Assembly: GCA_034670305.1 (NCBI GenBank)
Contig: JAXMNT010000006.1
Coordinates: forward strand, 32,001-96,000
Source of the DNA: Deltaproteobacteria bacterium
Lineage (GTDB): Bacteria; Myxococcota_A; Polyangia; Polyangiales; Houyiibacteriaceae
Reading direction: 5' to 3'
DNA length: 64,000 nucleotides
Shown: positions 9,801-54,431 of the stretch, one piece after another
Layout of the letters: each line of letters opens with the position of its first letter
How positions within the stretch are numbered: position 1 is the stretch's first letter
Notes under the pieces: model-generated
Told to the model about the DNA's origin: nothing
Database searches by the model: none
What the model saw: only the letters and a program-made list of their open reading frames with translations
Program-made: the position numbers and the translations under genes

Positions 9801-9920
9801 GCTTGCCCGTTCCTTGCCCGTGCCCTTGCCCTTCGTTCCCGATCCGCCGCCGAAGCCGATCCCGAAGCCGATCCCGAAGCCGATCCCGAAGCCGACGCCG
9901 AAGCCGACGCGCCGAAGCCG
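9801..9920. repeat. Composite simple repeat: (TTGCCC/GTGCCC)n followed by (GCCGAA/GCCGAT/GCCGAC)n
   Basis: Hexamer arrays read directly between hemL and rpsT. Confidence 0.85.
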
Positions 9921-9954
9921 CCGCCGCCCCCGCTCGTTCAAACGCCTTCCGCGC

Positions 9955-18195: not shown

Positions 18196-18320
18196 GCATC
18201 GGTGTCGGCTTCGGGATCGGTGTCGGGATCGGCGTCGGATTCGGCTTCGGATTCGGCTTCGGATTCGGCTTCGGGATCGGCTTCGGGTTCGGGTTCGGCT
18301 TCGGCTTCGGCTTCGGAGTC
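18196..18320. repeat. (TTCGGC/TTCGGA/ATCGGC)n hexamer array
   Basis: Read directly between the convergent nuclease and dusB genes. Confidence 0.9.
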
Positions 18321-19666: not shown

Positions 19667-19875
<209 letters not shown>

Positions 19876-23844: not shown

Positions 23845-24101
23845 TCGGCTTCGGGCGTTGGCTTCGGCTTCGGCTTCGGGCTTCGGCTTCGGCTTCGGGG
23901 ATCGGCTTCGGCGGCATCGGCGTCGGCATCGGCGTCGGCTTCGGCTTCGGCGTCGGCTTCGGCTTCGGGATCGGCTTCGGCTTCGGCGTCGGCTTCGGCT
24001 TCGGCTTCGGCGTCGGCTTCGGCTTCGGCTTCGGCTTCGGCTCAGCTACGGACCCGCGCCCGAAACAGGGCAAGGGCACGGGCAAGGGCAGGGGCAAGGG
24101 G
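23845..24101. repeat. Composite repeat (TTCGGC)n + (GGGCAA/GGGCAC)n, inverted relative to 19667-19875
   Basis: TTCGGC array at 23845-24042, GGG tracts at 24068-24101. Confidence 0.9.
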
Positions 24102-30561: not shown

Positions 30562-30672
30562 TGAAGCCGACGCCGACGCCGAAACCGAAGCCGACGCCGA
30601 AACCGAAACCGACGCCGAAGCCGACGCCGACGCCGACGCCGAATCCGAAGCCGAAGCCGAATCCGAAGCCGA
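30562..30672. repeat. (GCCGAA/GCCGAC/ACCGAA)n hexamer array
   Basis: Between the convergent kinase and DUF2520 genes. Confidence 0.9.
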
Positions 30673-35700: not shown

Positions 35701-38700
35701 CCGGGTGCGCGCCGGGGACTTCGTCGAGCGCAAACTTCCAGGCTTCGATCGCAGCGTCGGGATCCTCGCCCCGCCACTTGGCCCGACCAGCCTCACACCA
35801 CTCGAAGAACGCGGCGTCACCGGTCGAGTCAGAGGCGGCCTGTTGCCAGAGCGCGCCGGCGGCTGCTGGTTCGTTGGCCTCGAGCATCCGGACGAGCGCG
35901 CGTCGTGCCGGTGCGCCGCCCTCGTCCGCCGCCAGCTGCAAGGCGGCGCGTCGGTCGTCGCCCGCGAGTCGGGCCGCGAGTGCGAGAAGCACCCCCAGGC
36001 GCTGTTCGGGGGCCGCGCGCTCCGTCGCCGCCCGAAGGTGGGTCACGACTTCGGCGTCGTCGCCGGCCTTGGCGGCCAGGTCCAGCAAGAGGAGCGCTGT
36101 GGTGAGCGGTGCCTCGCCCCGTTCCGCGGCGGCCAGCAAGTACGCCCGCTCGTTGGATGGATCCGAGGTCGCGAGTTTGGCAGCCGCTTCGACCGCGGTG
36201 CCCTCCCCCTTGTGTTCCTCGCTCGGCGCGCTGAGCAGGGCGCCGTGTTTGCGCGTGAGGATCTCGCGGACCACTCGGATCGTGTCGAGGGTCTCGTCTG
36301 CGAGGGCCGCGTCCTTGAGGGCGGTCTGCGCGCCTTCGATGTCTTCGTTCTGTGCCCGGGCTTCGGCCAGGTCCAGCAACGCGAGCGCCCGGTTCGCGCC
36401 GCCGGTGGCTTCCGCAAGGGCGGTCAGCGCGGCGGTGCGTGCGTCCGCATCGCCCGCCCGGAGGGCCGCGAGTGCCTTCAACTTCAACCCCGCCGGTCGG
36501 GTGGCACCGTCGAGCAACGCCGTCGCTTCCGCCGGCTTCTTGGCGGCGAGCAACCAGCGCGCGGCGAGGCGGCGAAGGCCTTCCTGCAGGGAGGGCGTCT
36601 GCATCTGCGCCGATGCGGCCGAGAGCGCTTCGGCCCGGTCGACGGGATCTTCCGCCACGCGTGCCCGACCGAGGTTCGCTGCAAACCCCGCATGCCGAGC
36701 CGCCGCTTCGGTGTACGCCGTTCGGGCGCGGGCGGTCTGACCGGCCCGCTCCGCGTCTCGCGCCACGCGGGTCAACAAGGTGGAGGCGGCGACGTCGTCC
36801 TTCCAAACCTCCGCGGCCTTCTGGAGGGACACGGCGCCAGGGAGCCCGCGTCCCTGCGCACGCGCGGCTTCGTTCCACAGCAGGCCGGCCGGCACGCTGG
36901 GGTGTGCGGCCATCGCGGCGCGGCACGATCGTTCCGCGCCCTCCGCGTCGTCCATGCGCGACAGCTGGATCTCCGCGAGCAGCGTCAGCACGAGGCTCTT
37001 GTCGAGTGCGGAGAGCGGAAGGGCGGCCTCCGCTTGCAGCCGGGCCACGACCTCGTCCCAATCGCCGCGGTGCATGGCGGCGCGCCGGAGTGCGCGCAGG
37101 GCGAGCAGGTCGCGCGGGTCCGCCTCGTTGGCTTCGACGAACAGCGCGTGTGCTTCGTCGTGGCGCGCGAGCCGTTCGAAGATCTCGGCGGCGGCGACGA
37201 GGCACCGCGCTTTGCCTGTCGTGGGGCCGGACGCCGCGAGGCGCTTGAGCATCTCGCCCCGCTTGAGCAGCGTCTCGGGGTCGGTTCCGACGAACTCCAG
37301 CTTCTCTTCGCGGGGCTTGCGGTGTCGGACCGTTCGCTGCGCGGTGGCTGCACCTTGGTCTCGGGCGGCCGCCGCAGGATCCACGGCGGCCTCTGCCGCA
37401 TCGGCGTCGAACTCGAGCTCGGGCCCGTCGTCGTCTTCCTCCGCGACCTCGAGGGCTGGGGCATCGTCGCCCTCGTCGCCGAACTCGAGCGCTGGGCCGT
37501 CGTCGGATTCGCCGAACTCGAGCTCCGGGCCGTCGTCGTCGGGCTCGCCGAACTCGAGCTCCGGGCCGTCGTCGTCGGGCTCGCCGAACTCGAGCTCCGG
37601 GCCGTCGTCGTCGGGCTCGCCGAACTCGAGCTCCGGGCCGTCGTCGGGCTCGCCGAACTCGATCTCCGGGCCGTCGTCTTCTGGTTGGCCGACCGCGATC
37701 TCGGGCTCGTCGTCCAGTGCGGGCGGGTCCACGCGAAGCATGGGCGGGACCGGAATCTCTGTAGATATCGGCTCGAGCGATTCCCCCTCTGCGAGGGAGA
37801 CCTCCATCGTCGGCTCGTCCTGGCGAGGCGGCTTGGAGGACGTGCCGACGCGCGGCGCTGCGTCCGCCTCTGCCACGGCGTCTTCTGCGTCCTTGTCGAG
37901 GTCCCCGAAGAGAAGGTCGAGTTCTTCGTCCGGCTCGGCGAACGGGTCGAGGAGATCGTCCTCGCCGCTGGCGCTCGGACCCAGTTGGCTGGGCGTTGGC
38001 AACGAGAACGCACCCTTGGCTTGCGGACGTGGGAGCTCCGCTTGCGGAAGGCTGGGCGCGGGCAGGGCAGGCTGCGGCAGCCGGGGCGGCTTCGGTCGCG
38101 GCAACCCAGGCTTGGCCAGGGGCGGCGGCGCGGGCGGACGGGCGATGACGGGCGGTGGAGCGACCGGGGCGGCGACGGGCGGAGGCGCGACGGCCGGCGG
38201 TGCGACGGCCGGGGGCGCGACGGGCGCAGGCGCGATTCTCGTCGACTCGTCGTCGTCTTCGTCCTCGCCGAAGAGACCATCCAGATCCAATTCGACCGCA
38301 TCCCGGTAGTCGTCTGGGACTTTGCTTGCGCGCGGCGCGTCGCCTTCGTCTCCGGTCGTGCGGAGCTCCTGCAGCGAGGCGATGAGGTCTTCGGGCACCG
38401 CTGCGATGGCGGTGGCTTCGTCGCTGTCGTCGTCGCCAAACGAAGGGAATGCCTCGCGTACCTTGGCGGGGCTTGGCGGTGTGATCTTCGGCGCCTTCGG
38501 CTGCGGGATCTGCGGGACGGGCTTCTTCCGCGCTTCCAATCCGGGATCGGGCTGGTAGAGCGGACCTCGGCCGGCAGGGCGCGGTTTGGGCTTCGGCGCG
38601 GAGGGCTCCGGTGCAGGCGGTACGGTTTGCCGGAGCGGCGCGGCTTTCGCCTGCGCGGCGTCCTCGAAATCTTTCTCCCACGCGTCCAGCGCGTCGTCGA

Positions 38701-47383: not shown

Positions 47384-48435
47384 CTGAAGCGGCGGTGAAA
47401 GAACCGTTGCCCGCGGACCGGTTCCTCTCCGCCGGCCGCAAGACGCATCTGCGGCTCTGGAACGTGACCGAGACCGCTCGCGAAGTACGTTACGTGCGGA
47501 CCGCAGATGGCTGGCACCTCGCGCTCTCGCGCTACGGCGACCTCGGCAAGGTGCCAGGCGCACGACGGCATCCGGTGCTGCTGGTCCATGGCCTCGGATC
47601 GAACCGTCTCGCGTTCGACCTCGCGCCGGAAGTGTCGCTCTCTGCGTTTCTGGCGCGCCTGGGGTTCGACGTCTTCGCGCTCGATCTGCGCGGCCACGGA
47701 CGCAGCGAGAAACCGCGGCTCTTTCATCCGAAGGACTGGGGCTGGAACTTCCACGACTACGCGTCCAAAGATCTCCCCGCCGCGCTCGATGGCGTGCTCG
47801 CGTGGACCGGCGCGCCCGGTGTGCACGTGGTCGGGCACAGCATGGGCGGCATCGCGCTTCACACGCGGGTGGCGAAACTCGACCCGCGCATCCGGAGCGG
47901 CACGACCCTCGGCGCATCGATCGACTACAGCGGCACCAAGACCGTCTTTCACGCACTCATCAAGTGGATCTGGGCGACCTACCTGATGCCCGCGGTGCCG
48001 CTCGGCGGGTTCACGCGTTCGATGGCGCCGCTCGCGCTCGCGTTCGACAACCCGATCGATCGGGTGAACGTCTTCCCGTCCAACGTCGATCGGCGGCTCT
48101 ACCGCCGGCTCGTCGGCACCGCGTTTCACGGCATCAGTTCTCCGGTGCTGCGAAGTCTGTCGAAAGCCTTTCGACCCGGCGGGCTGTGCGACGAGAACGG
48201 AGACGGCTACTGCGACGCGGTCCCAGGCGAGACGCCGGTGCTTGCGCTGGCCGGCACCAAGGACGTGCAGTGTGCACCCGAAGCCGCCGCCCGCCGATGC
48301 ACCGAGATGCGCGCGTTCGGCCGCGCGTTCGACCACGCAGACGACTACGGCCACTTCGATCTCATCATGGGCAAACGCGCCGCCAGCGAGACGTGGCCGG
48401 TCCTGGCCGAGTGGCTCACCGCCCACGACTCGTGA
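47380..48435 (+). CDS. Alpha/beta-hydrolase
   Basis: VLLVHGLG, DLRGHGRS, VGHSMGG nucleophile elbow, GTKD, YGHFDL. Confidence 0.9.
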   Translation: MTEAAVKEPLPADRFLSAGRKTHLRLWNVTETAREVRYVRTADGWHLALSRYGDLGKVPGARRHPVLLVHGLGSNRLAFDLAPEVSLSAFLARLGFDVFALDLRGHGRSEKPRLFHPKDWGWNFHDYASKDLPAALDGVLAWTGAPGVHVVGHSMGGIALHTRVAKLDPRIRSGTTLGASIDYSGTKTVFHALIKWIWATYLMPAVPLGGFTRSMAPLALAFDNPIDRVNVFPSNVDRRLYRRLVGTAFHGISSPVLRSLSKAFRPGGLCDENGDGYCDAVPGETPVLALAGTKDVQCAPEAAARRCTEMRAFGRAFDHADDYGHFDLIMGKRAASETWPVLAEWLTAHDS

Positions 48436-48445
48436 GTGCATCGCG

Positions 48446-48787
48446 ATGGAACTGCATCACCTGGCGCTGAGGACCCGCGACGTCGAGCGGCTCGTCGCGT
48501 TCTACCGCCGGGTGTTCGATCTCTTGGTCGTGCGCGAAGGCCCGCACGGCTGCGGCCAAAGCGTGTGGCTACAGCTCGAGCATGGGGTGCTGATGATCGA
48601 ACCCGCAGCCGAAGACGAACCGTCGATCGATCCGCAGAGCCTCGAGCTCGTCGCGTTTCGGGTCGACCTCGCGCGGCGCGCGGAGATCGAAGCGCGGGTG
48701 TCGGTCGAAGCCCGCACCGAACACACGATCTACTTCCGAGATCCCGACGGCCGCCGCCTCGCCGTGTCCACCCACCCGCTCGACTGA
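48446..48787 (+). CDS. VOC/glyoxalase family protein
   Basis: [18 protein letters not shown]...[11 protein letters not shown]. Confidence 0.88.
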
Positions 48788-48809
48788 GCACGGGCGCGGC
48801 GACGCAAGG

Positions 48810-48955
48810 CCGGCATCGGCATCGGCATCGGCATCGGCGTCGGCTTCGGCGTCGGCTTCGGCGTCGGCTTCGCCTTCGGCTTCGGCTTCGGCATCGGCAT
48901 CGGCATCGGCTCCGGCATCGGCATCGGCTTCGCCTTCGGCTTCGCCCTTCGGCTT
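48810..48955. repeat. (ATCGGC/TTCGGC/GTCGGC)n hexamer array
   Basis: Between the convergent VOC gene and PurA-like gene. Confidence 0.9.
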
Positions 48956-48971
48956 CACGTGTTTGCTCGGA

Positions 48972-50351
48972 TCACCCGCCAGCGGCCACTTGGCGCCGCG
49001 CCACTGCAACCCCAGAGCGTGCCCCGCGCCAACGTTTGTCGGCCGCTCGGGCCCCGTGCGAGCGGAGCGACACCGGAAGCCCGGACGCGTCTTCGACGAA
49101 GCGCAGGAGCGCTGCTTCGCTCCCGACCGAAACCGTCCCGACCCCCACCTCGTTCAGGTGCGCCGTCAGCGCACTCTGGTGGTCCAAGTCTTCGGGACCG
49201 CCCAGCGGAAGTCGGTTCCGCAGCAGTCCCTCGTACCGGTCGACCGCACGCCACGACGCGTCGACGCGATCGAGGTGTGTCACCGCCAGCGCGTCCATGG
49301 GCGCGCAGTCGAGCGCGTAGCGGAGCAACACTCCGTCGAGCCAGCCGCGCCGGAACCCGCCCTGCCACCCCGTGTCGCCGTTGTGCGGTTCCGGTGTGCG
49401 TGCGTCCAGCGCACGGCACTCGGAGGGAAACGGCCCCTCTCCGTGGCGCGTCAGGTAGCTGCGCACCACCCCGAGCCGCACCGCCTCTCGGCCCGTCCCA
49501 TCCAGCATCTCGAGCGGGCGGGCGGCGGTGCAGGTGCTCCAGGTCGTGTGCGGATGGAAGCCGCGCCACTCGTCGAGCAGCACCCCCTGCGCGCCTTCGA
49601 ACAGGATCGGGTCGGGGCCCCGTGCGATCGCCTCGAAGTAGCCGCCGTCGACCAGCGCCGGTCGGTGCATGAGCGGCGCCAGCGCTTCCACGAACCGCTC
49701 GATCATCTCTTCGTCTTCGAGCAGGGCGAGTTCCACCGCGCTGAGCGGATCGGACGCATCGAGACCCAAGCCCGCGGCGATCGCCCGGGCCCGTTCGCGG
49801 ATGACGCGAAGCTTCCGGGGAAGGGCGGCCGGTCTCCACAGATCGGCCGCATGGAGGACCGCCGCGGGCGCTTCGAGCGACGACCGCACCGTCTCTCCGA
49901 CGCCGACTCCGACGGTGCCGTGGACCGGGACGCCCGCATGTGCGCGGGCGCGCTCCCGAAGCCGCACGAGCGCGCGTTCGTAGGGTGTGGTGACGAGCGC
50001 TCGGCCGTCGATGGTCCACCGTCCGAGCGCGTCGTGCACCCCGAGCCGCGCAAGCCGCGCCGCCTCTTCGAGGAGCGCAAGCGGCTCGAGAACGAAGTGC
50101 GGTCCGTGGTGGGTTCGCACGCTCGCAAGGAAGCTGGCCGCGCCGAACTGCGCGAAGCAGTGGTGACGCCCATCGCCGTCCACGACGTTGTGCCCGGCCT
50201 GTGCGCCGCCGTTCGCGCGCACGACGTGGATGGGCTGCAGGCCGCCCTCGGCATGGGCCAAGATGTCCCGCGCCAAGAAGTCGACGGTGGTGCCCTTGCC
50301 GCAGTCGCCGAACCCCAGGTCGACGACGATCCATGTTGCGCGTTCCGACAT
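48972..50351 (-). CDS. Divergent adenylosuccinate-synthetase (PurA)-like ligase
   Basis: DLGFGDCGKG, NGGAQAGH, HGTVGVGVGE, FEGAQGVLLD, YLTRHGEGPFPSE, FRRGWLD, THLD; lacks the canonical TTGR aspartate loop; GGAG RBS. Confidence 0.88.
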   Translation of the reverse strand: MSERATWIVVDLGFGDCGKGTTVDFLARDILAHAEGGLQPIHVVRANGGAQAGHNVVDGDGRHHCFAQFGAASFLASVRTHHGPHFVLEPLALLEEAARLARLGVHDALGRWTIDGRALVTTPYERALVRLRERARAHAGVPVHGTVGVGVGETVRSSLEAPAAVLHAADLWRPAALPRKLRVIRERARAIAAGLGLDASDPLSAVELALLEDEEMIERFVEALAPLMHRPALVDGGYFEAIARGPDPILFEGAQGVLLDEWRGFHPHTTWSTCTAARPLEMLDGTGREAVRLGVVRSYLTRHGEGPFPSECRALDARTPEPHNGDTGWQGGFRRGWLDGVLLRYALDCAPMDALAVTHLDRVDASWRAVDRYEGLLRNRLPLGGPEDLDHQSALTAHLNEVGVGTVSVGSEAALLRFVEDASGLPVSLRSHGARAADKRWRGARSGVAVARRQVAAGG

Positions 50352-50422
50352 CGTTCTCCTCCTCGAACGCGTCCGCCGCGGACGGTCCAGGCCTTTGGGA
50401 CCGGCGGCGGACGGTTCTCCGA

Positions 50423-51379
50423 CTAGCGGGTGTGGCCGCTCGCCATCGCGGCGGGCGGGAAGGGCGCGCGTTCGACCGCGCGTTCACCAAGCGTGTCCGC
50501 GAACGGACCGATGGCGGTGACGATCGCGCCGACCCGTTCGCGTTTCATGCCGGTCGCAGTGAGCCGTTCGGCCACCTCGTCCACATTCGCGAGCGCGCCT
50601 TCGCACAGACCCACGAGCGCGGCGGAGGCGGCGCAGGTGTCGGCGGCGCTCCCGAGCACAATCGCGTGTTCACCGAGCAGCTCGCGCCACTGGGCACCAC
50701 ACCGTCCCGCGCGGCGTTCGTCCGGAATGAGGAAGAACGGTTCGAAGCTGACCTGCAGCTCCGCGATGACGTCTTCGATCGGCATGTCGTCGCCCAGCGC
50801 GTCGCCGATGAGGCCGTCCACTTGAGACCGGGCGATGCGCGGGTAGGGGTGCTCGTCGCCGGTCATGAAGAAGTAGCCACGCTTCTTGCGCTTCTCCCAA
50901 CAGTCCATCGCCGTGTGCCGCGCCGCGAAGTACATGCCGAGCTCGTACGACTCCTGGAAGGTGCCGCCCCCGCCGCCCTCGAGAAAACTCCAGGTCAGCC
51001 ACTGGTCCATCAGCTCCGCTTCGGACTCGAACTGACCGACCTGCAGCGGCGCCCGATCGCTGTTCGCATCGCCGACGGCCATGAAGAGCACCTGCGGGCT
51101 CGCGATGCCGCAATCGAGCAGGAGCTTCATGAAGGTCGGAAGCTCCTTGCGCGCCAACAGATCCGGGATGTTGCCCATGGAGCCGGTGACATCGAGCGCG
51201 AACACGAGCCCGAGGCTGTTCGGATGTTCGTCGCTGTCGCGGCACTCCCGCACCCGCACCCCTTTGGGGTTCATCAGCGGATGGCAGGAGCGCTGCTTGA
51301 AGACCTCTTCGCGCGCGGTGTGCGCCCGGCCCGTCGTGAGCTTGTGGTGCGCATCAAAACTGTAACTTCCATATCCCAT
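50423..51379 (-). CDS. von Willebrand factor A (MIDAS) domain protein
   Basis: FALDVTGSMG, QVGQFES, EGGGGG...ESYE, FMTGDE; GAGG RBS before MGYGSYS. Confidence 0.85.
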   Translation of the reverse strand: MGYGSYSFDAHHKLTTGRAHTAREEVFKQRSCHPLMNPKGVRVRECRDSDEHPNSLGLVFALDVTGSMGNIPDLLARKELPTFMKLLLDCGIASPQVLFMAVGDANSDRAPLQVGQFESEAELMDQWLTWSFLEGGGGGTFQESYELGMYFAARHTAMDCWEKRKKRGYFFMTGDEHPYPRIARSQVDGLIGDALGDDMPIEDVIAELQVSFEPFFLIPDERRAGRCGAQWRELLGEHAIVLGSAADTCAASAALVGLCEGALANVDEVAERLTATGMKRERVGAIVTAIGPFADTLGERAVERAPFPPAAMASGHTR

Positions 51380-51416
51380 GGCAACCTCGCTTTCGTTCTC
51401 TCGGTGGTGGGGTTCC

Positions 51417-52448
51417 CTACGCGTGCTTGCGTGATGCAGGCAGAACGAAAGGAACGAACTTGGGTGGTCCCCAGACCGCCTCGGCGGCCTTCGAGACTTG
51501 GTCTTTGAGGGCCCATGCGTCGTCGGTCGGCGGGCGGTCTGCGCAGGTCTCGAGCAGCTTCCGGACCGGCGCCGGAGCGCGCGCGCCATGGGTGAGCCAG
51601 AGGAGGGTGCGAGCCAGCATCGCCAGATCGAGCGCGGGCTCGGGCGGCTTGGTCGCGGCGGTGGGGTAGAGCGCGGCGAAGCGCGTGCTCCGGGCCGGCA
51701 AGAGGGAGCGGGTGCGACCAAGCCGCCAGGTCGTCGCGCCCCATCCGAGCAGCACCACCGCGTGCGCGTCGGGGCGCACGAGCAGATGCGGTGGCAGCAC
51801 CGTGCCGTGCACGACGCCCGCACGGTGCAGCCAGCCCAGCATGTCGAGCACCCGCTTCCACATCCAGACCGCGTGGCGGGGATCCACCCCGCGCGGGAAC
51901 GCATTTCGGATGTCACAGGCCGTGGCTTCGAACCCAGCGCGGAATCGAAACGCCGTCGCCAGCGGACCGCCCGACCGGACCTTGCCGGGCGTGCGCGATC
52001 CCGCCGCGTCGTGCAGCCGGAGCGCCCCGTGGGCGATGGGTTCTGGGAGCAGTCGTCGGAAGAACTCGGCGCCTTCGGTCTCGGATGCGCGGAGCTCGCG
52101 GACCACCCGGACTTCCCGCGCGAGCAGGTCGGCGTCCGCTTCCGCGCGCAACACCTTCAAAGCCACCCGCTGGGTCAGCCGCGTGTCTCGGTGGGCGAGA
52201 AACACATCGCTCGAGTCGCCGCGGCCGAGCCGACCGTCGATCACGTAGACGTGTTTGCCGAGACCGCAGCGCGGTTTGCCGGCGTCTTCTTTGCGGCCCG
52301 CCCAGGGCGGCACGACCACAGGGCGCAGCCGCCAGGCGTCCGGGACGTCCACGACCACGTGGTCACAGAAGGCGCAGACGAGCGCCGTGGCGCGGGTCGG
52401 AGGGAGGGGCGCGGTGCACTTGGGACAGGTGAGGGCGGTGAGGGCCAT
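51417..52448 (-). CDS. Zn-ribbon + atypical (pseudo)protein-kinase-like protein
   Basis: CPKC...CAFC; LGRGDSSDVF Gly loop, VALKV, LAREVR; HGTVLPPH in place of HRDxKPxN; LLGW in place of DFG. Confidence 0.75.
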   Translation of the reverse strand: MALTALTCPKCTAPLPPTRATALVCAFCDHVVVDVPDAWRLRPVVVPPWAGRKEDAGKPRCGLGKHVYVIDGRLGRGDSSDVFLAHRDTRLTQRVALKVLRAEADADLLAREVRVVRELRASETEGAEFFRRLLPEPIAHGALRLHDAAGSRTPGKVRSGGPLATAFRFRAGFEATACDIRNAFPRGVDPRHAVWMWKRVLDMLGWLHRAGVVHGTVLPPHLLVRPDAHAVVLLGWGATTWRLGRTRSLLPARSTRFAALYPTAATKPPEPALDLAMLARTLLWLTHGARAPAPVRKLLETCADRPPTDDAWALKDQVSKAAEAVWGPPKFVPFVLPASRKHA

Positions 52449-52572
52449 GGCTTCGTGTGACAACTACACTAAGCAGCGGCGCGGGGCCGTCAAGACGGCT
52501 GGGGCGAATTAAGTGTCTTTTGGACACGAAGTCGGAGGGCCCTGCAATACAGGGTGGAAACTGCGGATCTCA

Positions 52573-52882
52573 GGCCGAAGCCGAAGCCGATGCCGACGCC
52601 GACGCCGACGCCGATGCCGATGCCGAAGCCGATGCCGACGCCGATGCCGAAGCCGACGCCGACGCCGAAGCCGAAGCCGAAGCCGAAGCCGAAGCCGACG
52701 CCGAATCCGAATCCGAAGCCGACGCCGAATCCGAAGCCGAAGCCGACGCCGAAGCCGAAGCCGAAGCCGACGCCGAAGCCGATGCCGATGCCGGCTGTGT
52801 CCGACTCCGACTCCGAAGGAGAGGATGTGCGGTTCCCGTGCCCGTGCCCGTGCCCGTGCCCGTGCCCGTGCCCGTGGCCGTG
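52573..52882. repeat. (GCCGAA/GCCGAC/GCCGAT)n array followed by (CCCGTG)7
   Basis: Read directly upstream of the kinase-like gene. Confidence 0.9.
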
Positions 52883-52895
52883 GTTCGAACGATCG

Positions 52896-54431
52896 TCAGG
52901 TTCGGCGGCGGAGCCAGAGCAGGGCGGCGAAGCCGAGTACGGGAAGCGGGCTGCCGGAGGACGACTGGGTTCGGCAGCTGCAGCCGCCGTCGGCGAGCCC
53001 GGTTCCCGCGTCCACCACACCGGCGTCCAAGGTGCCGCCGTCAGCGCTGCGACCCGCATCCGGATCGGTGCCAGCGTCCGTGCCCGGTCCCGCGTCTGCG
53101 TCTCCCACCGCGTCGAAGGTCAGCTCGAGTTCGAACGGGTCGATGTCCGAGTCGTAGGCGTCGAGGAAGAGGTGGTAGGTGCCGGTGGGCAAGGTCGCGG
53201 TGATGCGGGAGCCGCGATCAGTGTCGACGTCGATGTCGTCGTGGCAGTCGACTTCGCGCCCGTCGCAGCCTTCCCGCAGGTACAAGAGCGAGTCGAAGCC
53301 GCGGCTGCGCGCGACGAACCGGGTCGTGGACGAGAGCGTGAACTGGAACACGCGGTCGGGTCCGAGCCCACCACAGCTGCCCATCGCATCGGGGCCGTAC
53401 CCAACCAAGGTGCCGCTCACCGTTTGGTCGACCGCGTCGAGCGTCTCGGCCGCCTCGCAGCGATCGCCGAGGAGCGGTTCGACGCATGGCCCGTCGCATC
53501 CACACAGCTCGGAGTCCACGCCGGGCGTCGCGCACAACGCCTCGAGCGCAGGCCGCACGTAGGTGAGTCCTTCGCCGTCGTCTTCCGGCGGCGGATCGAT
53601 GACGTTGATCACGTTGCAGCCGCCCGCGTCGACGTAGTCGGTCTCGCCTCCGCGCAAGAGCGCGACGAGGTTGCCTTCGAGGTCGAACACCCCGGAGCCG
53701 GAGTTGCCATTGAACGCGTCGACCGACGCCGTCAGCCACGACGCGTCGCCGCTCGTCCACGTGACCTCGCCGGTCGTGTCGATCTTCATCGGGATGCCGT
53801 TGGGATGTCCGATGAGCGCGAGCGCTGTTCCGTCCGCCAGTCCGCTCGGCAAGAGCCGCACCGTCGCCGGCGTGTGGCCGACCACGGGCCGGTCGAGCTC
53901 CACGATCGCGTGGTCGACCCGGTCGTCGTCGAAGTACGCGAGCACCCGCGCGCAGCGGTAGACGTCGTCGGCGCCGAGGTCGACGAGTGCGCCATCCGCC
54001 ACGTAGCGCCAGCCGAAGATCCACACGCTCTCGCTGCAGTCGCTCGGCGTGTCCATGCAGTGTCCGGCGGTCAGCAGGTAGCGGTCGTCGATCAACGTGC
54101 CCGAACAGGTGCCGGGTTCGAGCTGCTCCCGAAACGCCACGCCCTCACACAGCGACTGCGCTTCGGCTAACGTGCGCGTGTAGTCGATGCCCACGACCGC
54201 GCCGGACTCGTCGAGGTTGTCCGGATCGATCTTCATCGCCACCGACTCGGCCGCCACCGACCTCAGTACTGCGCTCGGATGCGCGAACACTTCCGTGCGC
54301 CCATCGGTCTCGTACACCACCGGCTGTGCGATCGCCCCCGTGGGCTCGGGACCGCAGCCCATCCAGAGAAGGGCGGCGCACACCAAGCCGGCTCCGGCGC
54401 TTGCAGACATCCGACCGCGAGATGCGTCCAT
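52896..54431 (-). CDS. Secreted trypsin-like serine protease with PPC-like domain and MYXO-CTERM-type tail
   Basis: LTAGHC, VDHAIV, GNSGSG catalytic triad; lipobox-like WMGC; GGCSC...hydrophobic...RRRT C-terminus. Confidence 0.9.

Follow-up and report, generated by a model that had tools for sequence, protein, structure and literature searches.

A three-gene operon is found at positions 48972–52448 of a 64,000-nucleotide stretch of DNA, here termed the window, from a bacterium of the Myxococcota_A (GenBank assembly GCA_034670305.1, contig JAXMNT010000006.1, positions 32,001–96,000). It encodes a kinase-like protein, a protein with a von Willebrand factor A (vWA) fold and a divergent paralogue of adenylosuccinate synthetase (PurA). 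The operon is one copy of a widespread, self-contained accessory module that has the vWA protein and a PurA-family ligase as its core. The third part of the module appears to be an exchangeable adaptor, which may be a Zn-ribbon pseudokinase, a J-domain pseudokinase or a small helical protein. The best-supported context is regulation that responds to NAD and ADP-ribose, and palindromes upstream of the operon make it a predicted member of the organism's NrtR regulon. The PurA-like protein is probably no ordinary adenylosuccinate synthetase, as judged from its substrate-binding residues.

Proteins of the operon

The three open reading frames (ORFs) are co-oriented on the minus strand. According to the ORF listing and the frame-specific G+C content at third codon positions (GC3), which is of the coding type, they fill 48972–52448 exactly, with intergenic gaps of 37 and 71 nt (Table 1). 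The presence of a kinase-like, vWA and PurA-like operon, as described in an initial annotation made from the sequence alone, is confirmed.

The PurA-like protein matches PF00709 at 165 bits (cut-off 27) over model positions 1–330 of 416, and a profile of 13 family members aligns full length to solved PurA chains of the Protein Data Bank (E 2e-55). It thereby has the fold of PurA (EC 6.3.4.4; PF00709; 1ADE, 3HID, 6BS7) over its whole length. The PurA equivalog models are not reached (124.1 bits vs 402 for NF002223; 93.2 vs 395.6 for TIGR00184). Public records label the protein adenylosuccinate synthetase. The initial annotation called for a separate canonical purA to be confirmed in the genome, and one is found on another contig, C4 (G000:C4:66359–67591). 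It scores 582 bits over model positions 1–416, against 164 bits for the PurA-like protein; the two proteins are 28% identical.

Alignment of the window protein with 45 relatives (46 sequences) and with the genome's canonical PurA reveals which active-site residues are kept; Escherichia coli residue numbers were checked by counting along chain 3hid_A. The P-loop G15-D16-x-G18-K19-G20 and H54 are invariant, D361 and T270 are also kept and invariant, and Q255 is nearly so. Features in common with PurA are its P-loop (G-D-x-G-K-G), both catalytic residues (Asp and His), a Gln and a Thr at the base/phosphate site, and the Asp of the guanine-specificity motif. The P-loop and catalytic Asp and His that GTP-dependent phosphorylation of a 6-oxo group would use are present.

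The substrate sites differ from those of PurA. The aspartate loop A-T-T-G-R is replaced by G328-W329-Q330-G331-G332, in which W329 and Q330 are invariant in the family, and a nearly invariant Phe is found near this Trp-Gln. The ligands of the 5′-phosphate of inosine monophosphate (IMP) in PurA, which we take to be Asn38, Thr129, Arg143′ and Thr239 in E. coli numbering, are represented by T270 alone, the other three being replaced (Q51, V147, A163). Q51, which stands in place of the canonical Asn, is invariant; V147, in place of the Thr of the G-T-T motif, is Cys in most relatives; and the position equivalent to R143 has no Arg. The aspartate loop and these three phosphate ligands are changed in all 46 aligned members. 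Canonical T-K-L-D has become T-H-L-D, histidines are gained in G-F-H-P-H-T-T-W-S, and a new R62-H63-H64 in the lid loop is conserved in the family. Because the aspartate-binding loop and the IMP 5′-phosphate ligands are replaced, the protein is probably not an ordinary adenylosuccinate synthetase. As the substrate sites of this PurA paralogue are remodelled, an altered purine-nucleotide product is plausible. To this extent the proposal in the initial annotation of a modified purine nucleotide stands; the role in defence or conflict that was coupled to it is unsupported, as discussed below.

Phage PurZ, of the 2-aminoadenine pathway, is likewise a PurA paralogue that was taken over by phages and has a new substrate. 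The PurZ model NF038379 is matched by the PurA-like protein at 30.4 bits only, over residues 8–71, where the cut-off is 300, and no DatZ-, MazZ- or DpoZ-type neighbours are present in the annotated phage regions inspected. We know of no vWA or pseudokinase partner of PurZ.

The middle protein has no match in Pfam (even at E<=10), NCBIfam or PADLOC, and a search of the ESM Atlas yields vWA-like clusters without names only. As modelled, however, it clearly has a vWA fold. The AlphaFold2 (AF2) model, made with 46 sequences, has a mean predicted local distance difference test score (pLDDT) of 91.1, and Foldseek relates it to the vWA domains of collagen VI, integrin and TFIIH p44 at E about 1e-4. 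VIA gives Z 15.5 and a root mean square deviation of 3.1 Å over 197 residues to the integrin beta I-like domain 5ffg_B, and the VIA rows listed for the model (50 of 50) are all vWA domains. A predicted metal site consists of D63-V-T-G66-S67, which is of the metal ion-dependent adhesion site (MIDAS) type, and G174-D175-E176. D63, G66, S67, G174, D175 and E176 are invariant; the first MIDAS Ser is Thr in the window's protein. With a mean column identity of 50% over 46 sequences the vWA family is the most conserved of the three, and it contains many invariant polar residues. M1 is invariant and G2 nearly so, and the alignments of the best 150 family members mostly begin at residue 1. At E<=1e-30 the family comprises 985 clusters at 50% identity among 1.84 billion representatives.

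The kinase-like protein has an AF2 model of pLDDT 88.6, with VRK1 and PknB as best Foldseek matches (E 1e-10). Its match to Pfam Pkinase, 16.8 bits, is below the cut-off of 31.7 and is confined to the N-lobe. PADLOC matches of the N-lobe are also partial: PD-T4-6 (4e-11, residues 67–121), mad6 and PglW. In an alignment of 43 sequences, the beta3 Lys K98 is nearly invariant (>=90%) and the alphaC Glu E112 invariant. The HRD triplet reads H214-G215-x in all 43, with loss of the catalytic Asp; H221 occupies the place of the downstream Asn; and the DFG motif has Gly instead of Asp in the window's protein, the Asp being present in some relatives only. To judge from these residues, the protein is a predicted pseudokinase, or a kinase fold with other chemistry. 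An N-terminal CxxC...CxxC ribbon is present in the window's protein and most relatives. In Chloroflexota, Actinomycetota, an Agrobacterium plasmid and mycobacteriophages, a J-domain-like segment with the HPD motif takes the place of the ribbon.

The TerY-P triad consists of a vWA protein, a PP2C phosphatase and an active kinase, and in MoxR-vWA chaperone pairs a vWA protein is combined with a MoxR AAA+ NTPase. The module resembles these systems in its pairing of a gene for a vWA metal-site protein with one for a kinase-fold protein or an NTPase. It differs in having neither PP2C nor MoxR AAA+, in a kinase without the catalytic Asp, and in an NTPase partner that is a PurA-family ligase. The likeness to TerY-P drawn in the initial annotation is therefore loose: no PP2C phosphatase is found among the window neighbours or in the scanned flanks, and the kinase appears catalytically dead.

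Distribution in bacteria, plasmids and phages

A pattern scan of one genome per species gives 598 stretches, 563 of which are confirmed to encode PurA-like relatives. Host lineages include Myxococcota, Beta- and Alphaproteobacteria, Chloroflexota, Planctomycetota, Verrucomicrobiota, Actinomycetota, Fibrobacteria and lineages of the candidate phyla radiation (CPR). Locus counts, gene order and flanks refer to the best 80 genome loci (labelled in the manner of L001). The proposal that the triad is conserved as a unit holds: in 68 of the 80 loci all three genes are present on one strand, and the order kinase-like, vWA, PurA-like is constant. Of the 12 remaining loci, eight are cut off by a contig end, L010 and L011 are without the kinase-like gene, and L005 and L073 have the PurA-like gene alone. 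Between the vWA and PurA-like genes the median gap is 8 nt, and 17 of 73 loci show an overlap of 1 or 4 nt. In L035 a canonical purA is found within the same locus as the module.

The vWA-like gene is present in 26 of 301 genomes of the window's phylum and in none of 17 of its own family, and therefore the module is an accessory, horizontally moving unit. Among 72,556 plasmid records, 21 have a vWA-like gene.

Several loci display variations. In Myxococcota loci L025, L038, L045, L048 and L057 an extra gene of about 300 aa is found between the kinase-like and vWA genes; the extra copy in L048 is a vWA-like paralogue that weakly matches DUF444. In L092 (G175:C60), L086 and L087 the extra gene is a tandem vWA-like paralogue, with 286–433 bits to the family hidden Markov model (HMM). 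Two database proteins, P0125 (722 aa) and P0126 (578 aa), join a vWA-like part and PF00709; these may be real fusions, or frameshift or gene-calling artefacts of overlapping genes. A vWA-like gene of a Fibrobacteria metagenome-assembled genome (L075:4954–5931) has an in-frame TAG at codon 28; it may be a pseudogene, or the stop may stem from a sequencing error or a misassigned start. The phylum also has a sister two-gene system without a PurA-like gene, formed by a Zn-ribbon kinase that matches Pfam Pkinase above cut-off (35–50 bits) and a longer vWA-like protein of about 460–560 aa with an insert of about 170 aa. It is found in L088–L091 (G241:C75, G129:C16, G271:C2, G297:C3) and at L086:7184–8557, and adjoins the triad in two genomes.

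Phages carry the module abundantly. In the phage collection 224 records match the PurA-like and 219 the vWA-like protein; the latter include 200 Mycobacterium, 10 Rhizobium and 6 Vibrio phages. In the lytic Mycobacterium phage Sauce (Bixzunavirus) the kinase-like, vWA-like and PurA-like genes are consecutive; the kinase-like protein scores 233 bits against the family HMM and the PurA-like protein 407 bits. Only the pair of vWA and PurA-like genes is found in Vibrio phage Va1 and in Rhizobium phage RHph_TM30; in RHph_TM30 a HIRAN-domain protein is found at the adaptor position upstream of vWA. The vWA-like protein is encoded on at least 475 IMG/VR contigs, many of which are 100–420 kb long. Among the best 80 IMG/VR loci, vWA is followed by PurA-like in 75, and 32 of these also have the kinase-like gene. 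In 32 others a conserved helical protein of about 120 aa occupies the kinase-like position directly upstream of vWA (examples in Table 1), and the two never co-occur in these 80 loci.

Phage copies also display insertions. Sauce gp259 (L083:4206–5993) is a vWA-like protein with an insert of about 257 aa that is annotated as HNH endonuclease, and in other cluster C1 phages the vWA-like tblastn match is in two pieces. The insert looks like an intein or a homing-endonuclease insertion at a conserved site. GIY-YIG homing-endonuclease genes are found between the vWA and PurA-like genes in eight viral loci.

NrtR-type palindromes, NAD genes and other surroundings

Enumeration of inverted repeats beside nrtR or the module reveals the palindrome TAGTGT-N7-ACACTA in L064, L072 and the window. 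When this box pattern is scored at up to two mismatches, the window has exactly two matches where 0.17 are expected, and none of 100 shuffles reaches two. Both lie within the 125 nt between a hexamer array and the ATG at 52448 (Table 1). In the 80 loci (903 kb) there are 27 matches, nearly all of them 30–310 nt upstream of the first gene of the module and often in tandem pairs. Boxes are also present where there is no neighbouring nrtR (L003, L004, L031, L033, L037, L041, L050, L051, L062). A mainly viral set of loci (1.23 Mb) has 33 matches, all with two mismatches; 31 are scattered, and the remaining two are about 70 nt upstream of an nrtR-like gene in L165 and L166.

The sole perfect box in the 7.9-Mb genome, C1:280334–280352, abuts the start of NAPRTase in an operon of the order NAPRTase-X-nadE-nrtR, and the genome's single NrtR_WHD match (C1:285246–285428) is in this operon's nrtR. 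A one-mismatch box is also found between two small ORFs (C1:360564–360582). In the main text of Rodionov et al. (2008; PMC2330246), NrtR sites are described as 21-bp palindromes with a GT-N7-AC core, and ADP-ribose is described as releasing NrtR from DNA. Palindromes with this core are upstream of the window's operon, and the genome has both an NrtR gene and the same box at that gene's own operon. Since the window boxes, the perfect box at NAPRTase-nadE-nrtR and the published motif agree, the window's operon is predicted to be a member of the organism's NrtR regulon.

The flanks of bacterial loci are in the majority unrelated housekeeping genes, and the sole recurrent theme is NAD and ADP-ribose. 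Pfam scans covered 136, 84 and 67 flank ORFs and leave aside 20 near-duplicate loci, mostly of Variovorax; flank ORFs of high-GC loci were picked by a length and GC3 heuristic that may miss some real genes. At least 12 loci have an NrtR-type regulator or NAD salvage genes next to the module. As in NrtR regulons, some copies of the module have adjacent regulators in which NUDIX is joined to a winged helix-turn-helix (wHTH) and an upstream GT-N7-AC palindrome. These NUDIX and NrtR-wHTH orthologues, with 33–43% mutual identity, adjoin the module in 9 of the 80 loci and in several phyla; the NUDIX linkage anticipated in the initial annotation is present in this form. The placement of the nrtR-like gene varies between same-strand upstream, divergent and convergent. 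Plasmids provide two more cases: an NrtR-type regulator is beside the module on one from Agrobacterium vitis and, though its scores are weak, on one from Rhodococcus. In L080, NAPRTase, nadE, NMNAT-NUDIX, kinase-like, vWA and PurA-like genes are co-directional with gaps of a few bases. L072 has an ADP-ribosylglycohydrolase (ARH), PnuC and a NadR-like gene, and L064 an ADP-ribosylglycohydrolase. In a Rhizobium phage, a PRTase-like and an NMNAT/NUDIX gene are found 3 kb upstream of the pair. SPFH/Band-7 proteins (two with SHOCT) or an NfeD partner adjoin the module in four loci of different lineages (Table 1).

The window has 69% G+C, of the myxobacterial type, and a peptidase near the operon has a MYXO-CTERM sorting signal. 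Neighbours of the operon are an aromatic amino-acid lyase, an SDR protein, an alpha/beta hydrolase, this trypsin-like MYXO-CTERM peptidase, an MYG1-like protein and a DUF2071 protein. There are no purine-pathway genes among them, which bears out what was first read from the sequence. A sigma-70 promoter scan of 48300–53000 finds none, and two terminator-like sites in this region are no more than the shuffle expectation.

Hexamer arrays do flank the operon, as initially described, and the repeat units of the two flanking arrays at 48811–48956 and 52574–52793 are reverse complements of one another. They were considered as mobile-element ends or module boundaries and rejected. As eight arrays of the same GCCGAA/TCGGCT family, with 12–37 copies each, are present in the 64-kb window, the arrays are uninformative on the limits of the module. 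Longer tandem repeats at 37408–37714 and 38124–38235 have periods of 36/69/105/141 and 15/45 in a stretch of 72% G+C, and are probably coding repeats.

Table 1. Positions of the operon, its palindromes and other features; coordinates are those of the window unless a locus (L) or genome and contig label is given.
Feature	Position	Strand	Remarks
Predicted Zn-ribbon pseudokinase	51417..52448	-	343 aa, ATG start at 52448; AF2 model, Foldseek, alignment
vWA-fold protein (modelled)	50423..51379	-	318 aa; AF2 model, Foldseek, VIA, alignment
Divergent PurA paralogue	48972..50351	-	459 aa; PF00709, profile vs PDB PurA, alignments
NrtR-box-like palindrome 1	52453..52471		1 mismatch; 5-23 nt upstream of kinase-like ATG
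NrtR-box-like palindrome 2	52511..52529		2 mismatches; 63-81 nt upstream of kinase-like ATG
Genome's NrtR operon	G000:C1:280334-285470		NAPRTase-family 280352-281806, 317-aa ORF 281803-282756, nadE 282805-284799, nrtR 284796-285470
Helical-protein examples	L162:1101-1556, L100:4430-4807
SPFH/Band-7 or NfeD neighbours	L018:288-1118, L059:2941-4032, L071:2906-4027, L047:3506-4711
Hexamer array	48811-48956		flanks operon; 24 copies
Hexamer array	52574-52793		flanks operon; 37 copies
Hexamer array	52835-52882		flanks operon
Eight GCCGAA/TCGGCT-type arrays	405-764, 9844-9926, 18205-18316, 19731-19869, 23845-24042, 30563-30672, 48811-48956, 52574-52793

Proposed role and competing explanations

In the mechanism proposed, the operon would be repressed by the genome's single NrtR homologue. 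When ADP-ribose from NAD breakdown accumulates, the operon would be de-repressed along with the NAPRTase-nadE-nrtR salvage operon. The PurA-like protein would phosphorylate a purine nucleotide on its 6-oxo group at the expense of GTP and would then couple an amine to C6. An amine other than aspartate would be expected, since an invariant Trp-Gln stands in place of the aspartate loop. The acceptor would differ from IMP at the 5′ end and is possibly a diphosphate-linked nucleotide; plain IMP bound in the usual way is not expected, since the 5′-phosphate ligands are changed and the lid loop has new basic residues. An adenine-type or N6-substituted nucleotide would result and serve adenylate and NAD homeostasis, and large phages would carry the module to keep adenylate and NAD pools up during infection. 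The vWA protein would act as its obligate partner subunit, and the pseudokinase would bind nucleotide and serve as adaptor or regulator, the small helical protein being the adaptor in many phages. Taken as a whole, this NrtR-switched, GTP-dependent PurA-like ligase with a vWA partner and a pseudokinase adaptor is put forward tentatively, at somewhat less than an even chance.

A number of observations weigh against this mechanism. Most flanks have no NAD genes, and the window has no adjacent nrtR. Palindrome 2 carries two mismatches, and the genome has 10 box sites vs 53 for the reversed control and hence no over-representation. With this consensus the box is displayed by about 10–14 of the 68 full loci only, and viral copies are without it except for the nrtR site of L165/L166. 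NAPRTase and NUDIX are not found in phage Sauce or Vibrio phage Va1, and the recurrent RNA-repair-type neighbours in viruses fit another role. The reaction, the amine and the nucleotide are all inferred, and a simple metabolic step would not obviously call for a vWA protein or a pseudokinase.

A related possibility, which is unlikely, is that the vWA and PurA-like pair is a new enzyme system by which the adenine ring of a nucleoside-diphosphate-linked 6-oxopurine is rebuilt or decorated anew. The pair would be triggered by ADP-ribose via NrtR and would represent a further route of NAD or adenylate restoration, of unprecedented chemistry, that hundreds of large phages would carry to outlast host immunity which depletes NAD or deaminates adenine. 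Candidate substrates are a deaminated analogue of ADP-ribose or NAD, or IMP that would be aminated without aspartate and PurB.

The initial annotation favoured a conflict or defence module. In such a module the vWA protein and pseudokinase would sense an invader and free a PurA-like effector that depletes IMP or GTP or makes a toxic or signalling purine nucleotide. The patchy distribution and horizontal spread are in agreement with this, as is the modular architecture implied by the PurA-less form with a Zn-ribbon kinase and a long vWA protein. PIN, NB-ARC-TPR kinase, caspase or Uma2 genes are present in a few flanks. The kinase N-lobe does match the PADLOC kinase models PD-T4-6, mad6 and PglW, but the matches span only about 55 residues, and neither the vWA nor the PurA-like protein matches any model of PADLOC-DB 2.0.0 (library of 2023). 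Linkage to defence islands is not borne out either: the flanks are heterogeneous and mostly of housekeeping type, with no consistent defence genes in the Pfam scans. In addition, the full triad is carried by lytic Bixzunavirus phages of Mycobacterium and is found in hundreds of large phage contigs, L080 has the module in one operon with NAD salvage genes, and NrtR boxes are found in front of the module. A defence role is thus rather improbable.

Could the PurA-like protein act on a protein? It might join a purine C6 to a protein amine, for example that of the N-terminal Gly of the vWA protein after removal of Met, and the J-domain or Zn-ribbon pseudokinase would bring the client or DnaK. The invariant Trp-Gln in place of the aspartate pocket, with the nearly invariant Phe nearby, would suit such a substrate, as would the invariant M1 and nearly invariant G2 of a vWA family in which the alignments of the best 150 members mostly begin at residue 1. 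The pairing of vWA and PurA-like genes is obligate and often translationally coupled, the adaptor has the HPD J-domain motif in Chloroflexota, Actinomycetota and phage versions, and two database proteins (722 and 578 aa) combine the two parts. However, the fused proteins may be frameshift or gene-calling artefacts, and contact between the proteins is unsupported; complex prediction for PurA-like and vWA gave 0.61, 0.00 and 0.01 in three runs vs a mark of 0.32 and is counted neither way. The modification is without precedent, and the invariant polar residues of the vWA protein fit a small-molecule site equally well. A protein-directed ligase is quite improbable.

The neighbours in viral loci raise the question of whether the pair is an accessory to RNA repair or protects the translation apparatus, acting on damaged or edited RNA or nucleotide ends with ligases, kinase-phosphatases and Ro-like proteins as partners. 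Recurring genes in the 80 viral loci are R2K ATP-grasp (14), HAD_SAK_2 (7), TROVE (6), RNA ligase (5), DNA/RNA ligase-like (4–5) and RtcB (3). A polynucleotide kinase is upstream in phage Sauce, and two RlaP nucleotidyltransferases are downstream in L078. Large phages cluster many auxiliary genes, however, and proximity is therefore weak evidence; each neighbour is present in a minority of loci and is rare in bacterial loci, and PurA chemistry gives no pointer to polymer substrates. This role is very doubtful.

Finally, that the PurA-like protein is a second adenylosuccinate synthetase isozyme, a spare or stress copy using IMP, Asp and GTP, is highly improbable: the PF00709 match, the full-length alignment to solved PurA (E 2e-55), the retained catalytic Asp, His and Gln and the name in public records speak for it, but it scores 124 bits against an equivalog cut-off of 402, is 28% identical to the genome's own PurA, has the aspartate loop and three IMP-phosphate ligands replaced in 46 of 46 members, is always paired with a vWA gene (L005 and L073 apart), and coexists with a canonical purA in this genome and within L035.

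The proposed NAD/ADP-ribose-responsive role has points of contact with published systems. The main text of PMC2330246 does not contain "adenylosuccinate" or "purA" and lists no PurA-like, vWA or kinase gene. Among its genes of unknown function, nrtX-nrtY may be parts of this module. In PMC13464706, NARP1, NARP2 and NARP3 are defined by Adps + Namat, Nampt + Nmnat and PnuC + a NadR-like protein, respectively. NARP pathways are, like the module, phage-borne and tied to NAD breakdown products, and the NARP3 parts PnuC and NadR are beside the module in L072. None of the module's three proteins belongs to the NARP enzyme families, however. Adenylosuccinate, PurA, vWA and kinase are absent from the main text of the NARP1/2 preprint, as are adenylosuccinate and PurA from that of a jumbo-phage survey (PMC7824862). 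In agreement with the initial annotation, no description or functional characterization of the trio was found in the literature searched, although a passing mention in supplements or in a 2016 RNA-repair survey is possible.

The module combines three parts that are not known to cooperate: a ligase of the PurA type whose substrate pocket is rebuilt, a vWA protein with a metal site, and a seemingly dead kinase that has a Zn ribbon or a J domain. The trio is predicted to be under the control of a sensor of NAD breakdown, and may be described as a PurA-family ligase in a predicted NrtR regulon with unprecedented partners. A discrete protein family, of 985 vWA-like clusters, is involved, and no fewer than 563 species genomes and 475 viral contigs contain relatives. 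The full module is present in about 200 cluster C1 phages of the laboratory host Mycobacterium smegmatis, which makes it directly testable. If the proposed chemistry is true, it would represent a new reaction in purine and NAD metabolism, and a new phage strategy in the NAD-centred arms race.

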